Of a stretch of DNA of 64,000 nucleotides, positions 37,168 through 38,832 are shown piece after piece. The stretch lies in UHGV virus genome UHGV-0131811. One strand, 5' to 3'. Made by a program: the position numbers and the translations under genes. The DNA comes from a virus. Every line of letters begins with the position of its first letter. The stretch's first letter is position 1. The notes under the pieces were generated by a model that saw only the letters and a list, made by a program, of their open reading frames with translations, had not been told where the DNA came from and did no database searches.

Positions 37168-37262
37168 AATGTGATGTTTGGTTTGGTGTGGTCAGGTAAT
37201 GTGATGTCTGGTTTAGTGCGGTGATGTGCGGTCCGGTAAGGTCCGGTGCGGTAAAGTGCGGG
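37168..37262 (+). repeat. phased pentamer array A: 19 units with invariant GT every 5 nt
   Basis: Read directly: aatGT gatGT ttgGT ttgGT gtgGT cagGT ...; no open frame. Confidence 0.9.
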
Positions 37263-37302
37263 TAGTTAGTCTCAGCTACATTAAAATGAGACTTACCTTT
37301 TT
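37261..37302 (+). terminator. type-1 hairpin (AGTCTCA / GCTACATTAAAA / TGAGACT) followed by TTTTT
   Basis: 7-bp stem plus GGTA/TACC extension, then T-run; same loop with a different stem in locus 2. Confidence 0.45.
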
Positions 37303-37329
37303 AAAAGGTCTTTAAGAGGGTCTTTTAAT

Positions 37330-37399
37330 AAGGTGCTGTATGGTAAGGTGATGTCTGGTGTGGTAGGGTGAGGTTAAGTGAGGTGAGGTATGGGTGGAT
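37330..37399 (+). repeat. phased pentamer array B: 14 units NNGGT
   Basis: aagGT gctGT atgGT aagGT gatGT ctgGT gtgGT agGGT gagGT ... Confidence 0.9.
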
Positions 37400-37425
37400 G
37401 GTAGTAGCCACGTTAAAAATCTACC
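37400..37425 (+). other. type-2 hairpin (GGTAG / TAGCCACGTTAAAAAT / CTACC)
   Basis: 5-bp stem; locus-2 counterpart has GGCAG/CTGCC, a compensatory change. Confidence 0.4.
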
Positions 37426-37486
37426 AAGTTTCTAAAGAGTCTTCTGTTGAGGGTTCTTTACAAACAACTTAACAATCAACTAAAGT

Positions 37487-38089
37487 GTGGAGCTAAATGC
37501 TATGAAACTGTTAAATGTCAAAATCACTGGTACTCGTCCTTTCCTGAGCCATAACGATACACTGTCAGACCCATTAAACCCTCTGACTAAATATCACAAG
37601 TCTCTGTCCAGTAAACGTAAAAAGACTGACGAAGACTATGCGCTCTTAGCAGAAAGCCAACTGGTAACCTCTTGTTACTACGATGAGCAGCTAGGTTTTG
37701 TTATGAACGGTGAGATGATTGAGGCTTGTATCAAGTCTGGTGCAAAACTCAACAAACTTGGTAAGGTAATTGACCGAGCTATTATGCTGACAGATGTAGT
37801 CTTCCCAATGACTATCAAGAACTGTCCAGCAAACCCACAAGAACTTGCTAAGAACCCAGACTTTATCTATGCTAAGTCTGTTAAGATTGGTACAGCACGA
37901 GTTATGAGCTACCGTCCAATCTTCCGTGACTGGTCTGTAGAGTTCGGTTTGATGTTCGATGAAGAGCAAATTACCAAAGAAGAACTCTTGATGGTTCTGG
38001 AAAATGCTGGTAACCTTTGCGGTGTAGGTGATTGGCGTCCACGCTTTGGTCGTTTTTCTGTAGAAGTTATTTCAGAAGGTAACGTTTAA
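37487..38089 (+). CDS. hypothetical protein
   Basis: 200 aa from GTG 37487, or 195 aa from ATG 37502; first gene after repeat locus 1. Confidence 0.55.
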
Positions 38090-38091
38090 TT

Positions 38092-38532
38092 ATGAATACA
38101 AAAGCATTAGCAGCAAAGTTTAGTTACGGTGACACTGTATCACACTCTGAGATGGATACCTTCTTAGGTATTGTGAAGCCAACTTATCAAGGTGACATTG
38201 TTAAGTACGAAGATGAAATGAAGGCTTATGCGCTTACACGTCTAAACCGACTTGAGAAATTTATTGAGAAGCTTCTTAAAGAAGAGAAGATTTATCTGGT
38301 TGCTTCAATGGGTGTTGGTTATCGTGTGGTTGAGCCTAAACATCAAGCAACTATTGCAAAACGCAAAATGTCTGGTAAGATTGGTCGAGCTTTAAAGCAA
38401 GCCACTCAAGCAATTGAGAATGTGAACACTATGGCACTTAGCCATCAAGAACGTTCACGACTGATTGAACAGCAAAACCATTTAGCTGCTATGAAAGCTA
38501 ACATTAACAAGCAACGCAGAAAACCTTTCTAA
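38092..38532 (+). CDS. hypothetical protein
   Basis: 146 aa helical ORF followed by terminator. Confidence 0.55.
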   Translation: MNTKALAAKFSYGDTVSHSEMDTFLGIVKPTYQGDIVKYEDEMKAYALTRLNRLEKFIEKLLKEEKIYLVASMGVGYRVVEPKHQATIAKRKMSGKIGRALKQATQAIENVNTMALSHQERSRLIEQQNHLAAMKANINKQRRKPF

Positions 38533-38543
38533 GTTGACTAGGT

Positions 38544-38566
38544 AGCCTCTTCGGAGGCTCCTTTTT
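38544..38566 (+). terminator. rho-independent terminator (AGCCTC-TTCG-GAGGCT plus T-run)
   Basis: GC stem with UUCG tetraloop then TTTTT; directly precedes repeat locus 2. Confidence 0.6.
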
Positions 38567-38594
38567 AAAAGGTCTTTAAAGAGGGTCTTTTAAT

Positions 38595-38664
38595 AAGGTA
38601 AGGCACGGTTATGTCAGGTATGGTACGGTACGGTTAGGTAAGGTGAGGCGGAGTAAGGTATGGG
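38595..38664 (+). repeat. phased pentamer array C: 14 units NNGGT
   Basis: aagGT aagGC acgGT tatGT cagGT atgGT acgGT acgGT tagGT ... Confidence 0.9.
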
Positions 38665-38666
38665 TA

Positions 38667-38697
38667 GTTAATCGGAGCTACATTAAAATTCGATTAC
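38667..38697 (+). other. type-1 hairpin (TAATCG / GAGCTACATTAAAATT / CGATTA)
   Basis: Loop core GCTACATTAAAAT as in locus 1, stem sequence different but still complementary. Confidence 0.4.
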
Positions 38698-38731
38698 ATC
38701 ACTTAAGAGTCTTTTAAGAGGGTTTTTAAGT

Positions 38732-38806
38732 GAGGTGTGGCACGGTAATGTTAGGTAGGGTCAGGTCAGGTCAGGTGAGGTAAGGTAAGGTGATGTATGG
38801 AAGGAT
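38732..38806 (+). repeat. phased pentamer array D: 15 units NNGGT
   Basis: gagGT gtgGC acgGT aatGT tagGT agGGT cagGT cagGT cagGT gagGT aagGT aagGT ... Confidence 0.9.
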
Positions 38807-38832
38807 GGCAGTAGCCTTATAAAAAATCTGCC
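38807..38832 (+). other. type-2 hairpin (GGCAG / TAGCCTTATAAAAAAT / CTGCC)
   Basis: Counterpart of 37400..37425 with compensatory stem change. Confidence 0.4.

Follow-up and report, generated by a model that had tools for sequence, protein, structure and literature searches.

The stretch from 37075 to 38880 of the window, i.e., of the whole 64,000-nucleotide viral DNA analysed here, which comes from a Felix O1-like phage (Felixounavirus), very probably forms an entire locus of VIPR (Viral Interference Programmable Repeat), of type II and belonging to the SUSP1 clade, and we are just as confident that the four hairpins reported there represent the 3' tails of four VIPR guide RNAs (vrRNAs), each folded into a hairpin with a pseudoknot. 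VIPR is an RNA-guided DNA-silencing system, first described in 2026 in two preprints (10.64898/2026.04.26.720920, 10.64898/2026.04.26.720927). The tail structures are real and functionally meaningful, yet they are already known and have been explained before: the tail, its covariation and the cryo-EM view of the 3' pseudoknot are all contained in these two preprints (10.64898/2026.04.26.720920,.720927).

Organisation of the VIPR locus

The locus consists of two vrRNA genes, vipr, vap1 and two further vrRNA genes, all on the + strand. The vipr gene (37502..38089) codes for a RAMP-like guide-binding protein of 195 amino acids, which matches the PDB entry 36pp_D, "SUSP1 Vipr protein", with an E-value of 8.6e-128 and residues 1-195 aligned. 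The two proteins share 97% identity, and the published RNA-contact residues H17, E71, M72, R138, C173, D177, W178 and R179 are all kept, while the ninth contact residue named in the paper, T175, is V175 in the window Vipr and also in SUSP1. A Vipr of the SUSP1 clade is a RAMP-like protein of ~20 kDa with an RRM core, a G-loop and a thumb, and with more than 90% identity to SUSP1 Vipr, a description that the window protein fits as far as can be judged from its sequence. Directly downstream lies vap1 (Vipr accessory protein; 38092..38532, 146 amino acids), of which 145/146 residues (99%) are identical to the SUSP1 gene at the same position. An accessory vap gene adjoining vipr, with a putative role in DNA binding, is a mark of type II VIPR. 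Pfam and PADLOC searches of the locus ORFs gave no match, and this includes vap1 in the case of Pfam.

A strong sigma-70-type promoter (TTGACA-16-TATACT, 11/12 matches; 37075..37102, + strand) is predicted to drive the upstream vrRNA array together with vipr-vap1. The vrRNA genes are set apart by two types of spacer or leader, also on the + strand. Type A (37131..37170, with a second copy at 38697..38729) forms a stem-loop, CACTTAAGA...TTTTTAAGT, with the conserved loop GTCTTCTAAGAGGG; its 3' arm extends into the first repeats, and the stem is retained in phage Moogle despite a 22-nt insertion in the loop. Type B (CCTTTTTAAAAGGTCTTTAAGAGGGTCTTTTAA, 37294..37328) has the stem TTAAAAG/CTTTTAA, and the next type-B spacer begins with the T-run of the intrinsic terminator found after vap1 (AGCCTC-TTCG-GAGGCT, 38544..38567, + strand). 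The locus ends at an inverted repeat, AAATAAGCTATAA/TTATAGCTTATTT (38833..38880, + strand), which overlaps the promoter of the next gene (TTGACA-17-TATTTT). A scan of IMG/VR for the short leader motif returned mostly chance single matches, and the direct repeats listed in the Felix O1 and wV8 genome papers are others, the VIPR repeats being absent from those lists.

In SUSP1 the vrRNAs are expressed as RNAs of ~100 nt, which co-purify with Vipr (10.64898/2026.04.26.720920,.720927). The vrRNAs of the window are probably made and act in the same way; the window itself shows the strong upstream promoter and near-identity of all parts to SUSP1.

Guide regions and repeat code

Each unit comprises 13-19 YNNGG pentamers followed by a 3' tail of ~35-40 nt, and measures 130-160 nt with its variable guide region included. 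The guide regions of the upstream genes occupy 37166..37261 (vrRNA-1a; 19 pentamers, several of them degenerate at the first G) and 37329..37393 (vrRNA-1b; 13 pentamers), and those of the downstream genes 38594..38663 (vrRNA-2a) and 38730..38800 (vrRNA-2b), each with 14 pentamers, all four on the + strand. GGT recurs in strict 5-nt phase, on this strand only. The pentamer profile compiled from 90 distinct arrays reads T 88% / N / N / G 79% / G 96%; the array lengths are divisible by 5, and the NN positions are hypervariable from phage to phage. Tandem YNNGG vrRNAs flanking vipr, with GGY conserved and NN hypervariable, are a further mark of type II VIPR. The published vrRNAs of the SUSP1 clade have 9-16 YNNGG repeats and an invariable, pseudoknotted tail of ~40 nt (10.64898/2026.04.26.720920,.720927), and one window array, with 19 repeats, is above this range.

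The vrRNA tails fold as pseudoknots

In each tail two helices can be assigned: S2, the hairpin of 6-8 bp, and S1, a 4-bp helix between the hairpin "loop" and the bases right after the last repeat. Since this second helix is interleaved with S2, the fold is an H-type pseudoknot and not a plain hairpin. The base-by-base pairing given here is the predicted one. On the + strand, the tail of vrRNA-1a (37262..37293, allele 1a) pairs GTAG 37262-65 with CTAC 37276-79 as S1 and AGTCTCA 37268-37274 with TGAGACT 37287-37293 as S2, leaving the A-rich loop ATTAAAA at 37280-86. The tail of vrRNA-1b (37394..37426, allele 2a) has S1 GTGG 37394-97 / CCAC 37408-11, S2 TGGTAG 37399-37404 / CTACCA 37421-37426 and the loop GTTAAAAAT at 37412-20, and is identical in sequence to the tail of SUSP1 vrRNA1. 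In the downstream pair, the vrRNA-2a tail (38664..38696, allele 1b, + strand) combines S1 GTAG 38664-67 / CTAC 38678-81 with an S2 of 8 bp including one G.U (TAATCGGA 38669-38676 / TTCGATTA 38689-38696) and the loop ATTAAAA at 38682-88, and the vrRNA-2b tail (38801..38833, allele 2b, + strand) combines S1 AAGG 38801-04 / CCTT 38815-18 with S2 TGGCAG 38806-38811 / CTGCCA 38828-38833 and the loop ATAAAAAAT at 38819-27. A 3' tail of ~40 nt with hairpin and pseudoknot, as expected for type II VIPR, is recognised here by the compensatory changes and by the sequence identity to SUSP1 vrRNA1. The fold of the SUSP1 tail was itself deduced from covariation, shown across five tails in Fig. S9 of the preprints, and later visualised by cryo-EM (10.64898/2026.04.26.720920,.720927).

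Nested minimum-free-energy folding of the tails, in which the pseudoknot is not scorable, gave modest values (-5.6 to -10.4 kcal/mol, z -0.8 to -2.4), and for tail 1a it favoured an outer GGUA/UACC helix that competes with S1. A search of the whole window with the Rfam covariance models gave no match, and a permissive Rfam scan (E up to 10) of 36900-39000 gave chance matches of snoRNA type alone, with E > 3.

Covariation of the tails

The comparative set holds 124 units from 42 related loci, among which only four tail alleles occur, and covariation was tested on the 19 distinct type-1 and 12 distinct type-2 tails of the 42 loci. Paired cells make up 95%, a share that drops to 22-52% once the 3' partner is shifted by 1-3 columns; the observed covariation score was reached in 0/500 column shuffles, and when the same number of substitutions was placed at random, every pair survived in 0.9% of type-1 and 0.6% of type-2 trials. 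Type-1 S2 has three compensated pairs, type-2 S2 has one and type-2 S1 has two, GUGG/CCAC alternating with AAGG/CCUU in this last helix. At one stem position C-G, G-C, G·U and A-U are all found as pairs, and because G·U is a C-A mismatch on the other strand, the G·U/G-C/A-U series indicates a + strand RNA and not a DNA cruciform. The independent covariation events are few, as there are essentially two alleles per tail type; S1 is invariant within type 1, and part of the tail sample was fetched by patterns in which S1 was fixed. Departures from the pairing are seen in Moogle (2a) and tootiki (2b), where the first G of S2 is changed to A without compensation, and in vB_SflM_004, where one copy is without S1.

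The four hairpins of the first-pass annotation are all present at the coordinates it gives, and its claim that the stems differ between the two loci in a compensatory manner holds. Its view of the type-1 stems as completely different stems from an error of register: in register, 4/7 pairs are the same and three are compensated, each being changed on both sides (G-C>A-U, U-A>G-C, C-G>G.U). The stem TAATCG/CGATTA given for type 1 in locus 2 does exist, as the core of a full stem of 8 bp with one G.U. For type 2, the single compensated pair holds for S2, but the "loop" described as shared differs between the loci (CCAC vs CCTT), and this is offset by the upstream GTGG vs AAGG. The hairpin is likewise real as the S2 stem-loop, but it is part of a pseudoknot with interleaved S1. 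The annotation saw selection for either a folded RNA or a cruciform; the former is correct, as these are vrRNA tails, whereas the latter is at odds with the G.U pair and with the restriction to the transcribed strand.

Targets in a satellite-like element

Targets were sought by comparing the NN dinucleotides of the guides with DNA under the published 1-nt-skip rule, at >=80% NN match (10.64898/2026.04.26.720920,.720927). In this comparison a satellite-like element of the E. coli chromosome (contig L235) is matched by 3/4 window guides. The element bears an integrase, a tape-measure gene and a Felix-like structural gene, and is found on the chromosome in 537/5426 complete E. coli genomes. The best case is vrRNA-2a, with 25/28 NN (0.89) at L235 870-911, the next best site in 2.44 Mb having 21/28; vrRNA-1b matches 22/26 NN (0.85) at position 4912, and vrRNA-2b 22/28 NN (0.79) at position 3644, a site that a 12-repeat variant of this guide from another phage matches at 22/24. 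No target was found in the data searched for vrRNA-1a (19 repeats, many degenerate), whose best L235 score is 0.63; the satellite sequence searched was 11 kb of one satellite variant. Among the guides of related phages, 23/86 reach >=80% on L235, compared with 2/86 once the NN order is shuffled, and the best self-matches of the guides in the window are 0.63-0.71. For 3/4 guides this agrees with what is expected of VIPR, namely NN-matched natural DNA targets, mostly in a satellite element, without self-targeting.

The satellite carries a vrRNA of its own, which likewise ends in the 2a tail and has a distinct canonical terminator downstream, and it was through this tail that L235 entered the sample, not through target-seed searches. 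Exact seeds of 9-10 repeats searched in IMG/VR, JGI metagenomes and GTDB genomes gave matches at chance level, none in Enterobacteria, with extension scores at background level, and complete E. coli genomes contained no BLAST match to the tail plus spacer.

Alternative explanations

That the hairpins are ordinary punctuation, i.e., intrinsic terminators or hairpins for RNase processing or stability, having neither a pseudoknot nor a role in a ribonucleoprotein, is very unlikely. Tail 1a is indeed followed by TTACCTTTTT, in phage ASO1B these intergenic regions were annotated with predicted rho-independent terminators, and the tails sit at the boundaries of tandem RNA genes, where they likely help to define 3' ends in any case. 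However, a consensus terminator scan detects the vap1 terminator only and 0/4 tails, no T-run follows tails 1b, 2a and 2b, and the satellite vrRNA has its canonical terminator in addition to the 2a tail. A plain terminator hairpin also does not explain the covariation of S1, and cryo-EM places the pseudoknot within the complex (10.64898/2026.04.26.720920,.720927). We regard as extremely improbable that the inverted repeats act as double-stranded DNA, either as cruciforms or as protein-binding sites for partition, replication origin or packaging. In GenBank, parts of the region carry the label of direct repeats, "DR_4", or that of a putative StbAB site (in KhF3, "possible binding site of StbAB"), several records start or finish near the locus, and the type-B spacer holds a DNA palindrome, ACCTTTTTAAAAGGT. 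Against this stand the stem pair seen as G.U, G-C and A-U, the poorer folding of 3/4 tails as the minus strand, and the location of all arrays and tails on the transcribed strand. In the relative UAB_Phi87 the genome termini were mapped close to wV8 gp055, a long way from the locus, and an essential role in replication origin or packaging is excluded by the lack of the locus in related genera (Michonne, EP1, phiEa21-4).

The layout of ToxIN and the escape of phages through pseudo-ToxI inspired, as a lead only, a further reading, to which we give a vanishingly small probability: that the pseudoknotted units mimic a ToxI-like type III antitoxin against a host abortive-infection endoribonuclease, the A-rich loop (AAAAU) being cleaved or recognised. 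The arrangement is similar, in that a promoter is followed by tandem RNA repeats, each closed by a pseudoknot, and then by an ORF of ~170-200 amino acids, and AAAU-like motifs occur in the loop. Type III toxin-antitoxin systems (ToxIN/CptIN/TenpIN) have a ToxN/AbiQ-family gene downstream, but here no such gene was found with Pfam, PADLOC or PDB: the downstream ORF is Vipr by its PDB match, with no Pfam or PADLOC match. The units, at 130-160 nt, include a variable guide, whereas antitoxin repeats measure 34-45 nt, and antitoxin mimicry does not predict that the variable dinucleotides match satellite DNA.

Several other candidates were considered before the PDB match pointed to Vipr, and were then dropped. 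A sponge RNA for a TRAP-like ring protein, in 5-nt register, is close in spirit, with Vipr being the actual partner; a CsrA sponge disagrees with the motif, which is GGU and not GGA, and two-tier G-quadruplexes with the first G, at which A or T is common, GT being the invariant part. The three conserved bases per repeat speak against tRNA CCA-end and anti-SD sponges, the absence of the locus from sister genera against an R-loop origin or dense T7-type primase sites, and the genome termini mapped elsewhere against a packaging signal, while a Chi-like RecBCD decoy was discarded as the Chi match is not systematic. The likeness to a boxA-like antitermination leader, which we take to be a resemblance only, was likewise set aside.

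Tail alleles by position and orphan arrays

The tail alleles track the position in the array and not the locus: 1a and 1b are found only between vrRNAs, 2a only before vipr and 2b only at the locus end. The stem variants had been treated in the first-pass annotation as traits of locus 1 and locus 2, which fails in KhF3 and wV8, whose locus 2 bears the "locus 1" stem. The differing S2 stems, together with the conserved spacer stem-loop 3' of them, might steer the folding and maturation of a polycistronic precursor and prevent mispairing among neighbouring tails. In addition, vipr-less relatives bear orphan vrRNA arrays (SP116, checked over the whole genome, and ECOH1, checked at the VIPR locus only), and guides of these arrays still match the satellite; such arrays could borrow Vipr from co-infecting relatives or have a decoy role, or else be deletion scars. 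That position-specific tail alleles serve as punctuation and that the vrRNA arrays of vipr-less Felix O1-like phages are functional is a tentative proposal, which we consider rather unlikely.

Proposed mechanism and significance

In the VIPR mechanism, each unit would be transcribed from the + strand into a guide RNA, on which one Vipr protomer would sit per YNNGG pentamer, hiding the GGY bases and leaving the two variable N bases exposed. These would read double-stranded DNA, passing over one target base at each repeat, and transcription of the competing satellite element would be silenced as a result. The 3' tail would be the invariant end of the guide, in which the S2 hairpin interleaved with S1, together with the A-rich third loop, closes the H-type pseudoknot; its alleles would differ solely by compensated pairs, because the fold, and not the stem sequence, matters. 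In cryo-EM intermediates the subunits beside the pseudoknot are always resolved, with further protomers and the R-loop added 3'-to-5' (10.64898/2026.04.26.720920,.720927). The protein identity, the repeat code, the tail covariation including that of S1, the RNA-strand specificity and the matching targets come from the present analysis, and RNA expression, co-purification with Vipr, the skip rule, silencing and the cryo-EM pseudoknot from the preprints (10.64898/2026.04.26.720920,.720927).

VIPR reads DNA with RNA by a noncontiguous code, and its authors propose an origin before CRISPR (10.64898/2026.04.26.720920,.720927). The 3' pseudoknot is the sole fixed structural landmark of the guide, and that this element was picked out from raw sequence through its compensated stems makes it a useful positive control. 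Our additions are modest: a larger comparative set, of 124 units and four alleles, explicit covariation support for the pseudoknot stem S1, the RNA strand fixed by the G.U/G-C/A-U series, the link between allele and position, and the vipr-less arrays. Satellite targeting is also reproduced independently for guides of the window phage, at the level of sequence matches.

Comparison with known systems

As a small H-type pseudoknot of ~33 nt with the topology S1-L1-S2-L2-S1'-A-rich L3-S2', the tail resembles the preQ1-I riboswitch aptamer, from which it differs by its place at the 3' end of a guide RNA, by having no indicated ligand role and by the lack of an Rfam match. ToxI antitoxin RNAs are also tandem RNA genes, each a small pseudoknot in a protein-RNA assembly, but VIPR has an unrelated protein partner and a long variable guide region, lacks a toxin, and targets DNA instead of inhibiting a toxin. 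Parallels with the crRNA handle of class 1 CRISPR (Cas6/Cas5/Cas7) are drawn in the VIPR preprint itself (10.64898/2026.04.26.720920,.720927). In both systems a conserved structured element caps a variable guide, the guide is coated by a polymer of RAMP-fold proteins that flip out bases with regular periodicity, and the stem sequence is free to vary while pairing is kept. In contrast, neither a CRISPR array nor genes for spacer acquisition nor Cas6-type processing was found, the period is 5 nt with only two reading bases per repeat and a target read with a 1-nt skip, and the cap is a pseudoknot and not a simple repeat hairpin.

With SUSP1 VIPR the differences are in detail: the window phage is a Felixounavirus and SUSP1 a Suspvirus, the window has two upstream and two downstream vrRNAs whereas SUSP1 has one upstream and three downstream, one window guide has 19 repeats against the stated 9-16, and tail allele 1b is missing in SUSP1. 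The two loci share the gene order vrRNA(s)-vipr-vap1-vrRNAs, the YNNGG code, Vipr at 97% and vap1 at 99% identity, the type of target, a chromosomal satellite-like element, and the tail alleles, 2a being the tail of the RNA studied by cryo-EM, SUSP1 vrRNA1.

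A VIPR locus in a Felix O1-like phage

By megablast the window is Felix O1-like (Felixounavirus), with 231 matching phage records, the top match being Salmonella phage SeKF_63 (98%). Two intergenic loci, 37131-37430 and 38540-38835, lie on either side of the same two ORFs and hold two units each, every unit comprising a conserved spacer of ~35 nt with AAGAGGGT, a pentamer run with GGT in strict 5-nt phase, and a terminal inverted repeat. Across the 64-kb window, phasing this strong occurs only at the four unit sites and only on the + strand. A strong promoter, predicted from sequence at 37075-37102, precedes the upstream array. 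An 8-bp inverted repeat (GGTGAGTA ... TACTCACC, 37091-37130), conserved as GGGTACTCACC in all compared loci of relatives, covers its -10 hexamer and the first ~25 transcribed nt. A hydrophobic 48-aa ORF (36923-37069, phrog_22006) separates the ligase gene from this promoter and is kept in relatives, including array-less ones (Michonne gp047).

Pfam, PHROGs and PADLOC assigned no function to either ORF of the locus. A PDB sequence search matched the 195-aa ORF (vipr, 37502..38089) to 36pp_D, 'SUSP1 Vipr protein' (E 8.6e-128), from an Escherichia phage with a published VIPR system; the two proteins are 97% identical, with H17, E71, M72, R138, C173, D177, W178 and R179 retained, and the second ORF (vap1, 38092..38532) is 99% identical to its SUSP1 counterpart. 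VIPR systems comprise a RAMP-like Vipr, an accessory Vap and guide RNAs (vrRNAs) of 9-16 YNNGG repeats, which read double-stranded DNA by their NN dinucleotides with a one-base skip and silence competing mobile elements (10.64898/2026.04.26.720920, one of two 2026 preprints on these systems).

Public records disagree in how they annotate the region: wV8 labels it a 'DR_4' repeat, KhF3 a 'possible binding site of StbAB' and tootiki a bare repeat_region, and ASO1B has predicted terminators there. The records GU169904 'Staphylococcus phage SA1' and MG065668 'Campylobacter phage A126' hold near-identical Felixounavirus sequence, vipr included (99%), and are probably mislabelled or contaminated entries.

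Predicted fold of the vrRNA tails

The four terminal hairpins reported in the first-pass annotation (37261-38832) are all present at the positions given there, and four tail alleles cover 124/124 units from 42 related loci: 1a (GTAG-TT-AGTCTCA-G-CTAC-ATTAAAA-TGAGACT), 1b (GTAG-T-TAATCGGA-G-CTAC-ATTAAAA-TYCGATTA), 2a (GTGG-A-TGGTAG-TAG-CCAC-GTTAAAAAT-CTACCA) and 2b (AAGG-A-TGGCAG-TAG-CCTT-ATAAAAAAT-CTGCCA). Window vrRNAs 1a and 1b (locus 1) carry alleles 1a and 2a, and vrRNAs 2a and 2b (locus 2) alleles 1b and 2b. Besides the hairpin stem (S2) there is a second helix, S1, which that annotation missed: four bases within the 'loop' are complementary to the four directly 3' of the final repeat (GTGG/CCAC in 2a, AAGG/CCTT in 2b, GTAG/CTAC in type 1). 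S1 and S2 interleave, so the tail is predicted to form an H-type pseudoknot whose third loop is A-rich.

The type-1 stems, held to be completely different yet complementary, are indeed complementary but have 4/7 pairs in common, the 3 changed pairs all being fully compensated; one S2 position of type 1 is seen as C-G, G.U, G-C and A-U. The S2 stems of 2a and 2b differ, as had been noted, by a single compensated pair, and their S1 helices by two; within type 1, S1 does not vary, and some of the tails sampled were ascertained with S1 fixed. In the tail alignments 95% of cells were paired, against 22-52% with partners slid; the observed covariation score, drawn from only about two alleles per tail type, was matched by no column shuffle, and random substitutions retained all pairs in <1% of trials. 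In the comparative set the terminal S2 pair has two uncompensated breaks, and one degenerate tail copy occurs, in vB_SflM_004. Nested folding energy is modest, and the minus strand is worse for 3/4 tails. The G.U/G-C/A-U series and the strand bias point to structures of + strand RNA and disfavour a DNA cruciform, the alternative originally offered. Selection for a folded RNA, also proposed in that annotation, is supported by the compensated S2 and S1 pairs, by the same series and by the published VIPR tails.

Distribution of arrays and tail alleles

The comparative sample was the ligase-proximal region of 20 GenBank Ounavirinae genomes, together with IMG/VR contigs fetched with tail patterns. 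In this set every array lies in the interval flanked by the ligase gene and the conserved gene after it and runs on the gene strand; genomes have 0 to 5 units. The 90 distinct arrays have lengths in multiples of 5 and a pentamer profile of T 88% / N / N / G 79% / G 96%, both N positions being hypervariable from phage to phage.

The stem variants are not locus-specific, since allele 1a is also present in locus 2 of KhF3 and wV8. Tail alleles instead follow position: downstream of a type 1 tail there is always a further unit, downstream of 2a the vipr leader, and downstream of 2b the promoter of the next gene.

Vipr is 97-100% identical among Felixounavirus, Mooglevirus and Suspvirus, where ligase-proximal DNA is only ~80-87% identical, and is found in about 118 of ~260 enterobacterial Ounavirinae records, which suggests that the cassette has recently been exchanged horizontally or has been lost repeatedly.

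Guide targets

Guides were matched by the published one-base-skip rule, scoring NN positions over 2.44 Mb of sequence. Window guide 2a matches 25/28 NN positions on L235, a satellite-like E. coli contig (IMGVR_UViG_2579779076_000012), the runner-up site in the 2.44 Mb scoring 21; guides 1b and 2b match there at 22/26 and 22/28. The 2a site (870-911) is intergenic and rich in TTAACAG motifs. Guide 1a (37166-37261), in which the first G is degenerate in 8/19 repeats (ATG, AAG or TAG), is the sole window guide with no match on L235 or in the rest of the 2.44 Mb. A skip-rule scan gave no comparable self-match in the window.

Many phage guides target L235: 23/86 distinct related-phage guides match its 11 kb at >=80%, against 2/86 with NN order shuffled. 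L235 carries a single vrRNA of its own (400-590, minus strand), in which a promoter (TTGACG-17-TATAAT) precedes about 10 repeats that end in a 2a tail, with a separate canonical terminator after it; neither vipr nor vap1 was found in the 11.1 kb covered. Its genes include integrases, a tape-measure protein and a Felix-like structural protein, and relatives are chromosomal in 537/5426 complete E. coli genomes. L235 fits the satellite of 10.64898/2026.04.26.720920.

Orphan arrays and spacer stem-loops

In Salmonella phage SP116 there are two vrRNA units, both with normal tails (our record L131, 3618-3870), and tblastn of its whole 87.5-kb genome (records L273 and L274) found neither vipr nor vap1. 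ASO1A, JLBYU28, HMD-P8 and ECOH1 (records L132, L133, L134 and L136) retain 1-3 units and lack the vipr-vap1 cassette at the locus. In single-unit vipr-less arrays the first spacer (type A) is fused to the final tail (2b), the junction that cassette deletion by recombination between the flanking arrays would leave. The ECOH1 guides match L235 at 0.89 and 0.86.

One conserved spacer of ~35 nt precedes every vrRNA of the window (37131-37170, 37294-37328, 38560-38593, 38697-38729), and a degenerate fifth copy lies upstream of vipr (37432-37462). Spacers can fold into a stem-loop (CACTTAAGA...TTTTTAAGTG or TTAAAAG...CTTTTAA, with GTCTTnnAAGAGGGT in the loop), whose stem is retained in Moogle although the loop has a 22-nt insertion; the type B spacer also resembles a weak promoter (TTTAAA-17-TTTAAT). 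Neither 10.64898/2026.04.26.720920 nor 10.64898/2026.04.26.720927 discusses vrRNA biogenesis, so the stem-loop may be a signal for processing or folding.

Proposed mechanism and comparison with SUSP1

By analogy with SUSP1, from which the expression, binding and silencing steps are carried over to the window phage, the upstream array and vipr-vap1 would be transcribed from the strong promoter, the downstream array coming after the vap1 terminator. The pentamers would be a track for Vipr polymerisation, and the 3' pseudoknot a filament cap marking the end where target engagement starts. Selection would then act on the fold and not on stem sequence, which would be why the stems differ only by compensated pairs. 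In SUSP1, two filaments dimerise weakly at the 3' pseudoknot, and in unwinding intermediates the pseudoknot-adjacent subunits are always visible, more protomers resolving 3'-to-5' (10.64898/2026.04.26.720927).

The window 2a tail and the tail of SUSP1 vrRNA1, the cryo-EM RNA, are identical. The compensated hairpins and their RNA interpretation are correct and both already published, the covariation analysis of five tails with hairpin and pseudoknot brackets being in Fig. S9 of 10.64898/2026.04.26.720920. The position-specific tail alleles, the orphan arrays and the stem-loop of the conserved spacer are additions to that work, and guide 1a of the window, with 19 repeats, exceeds the published 9-16 range.
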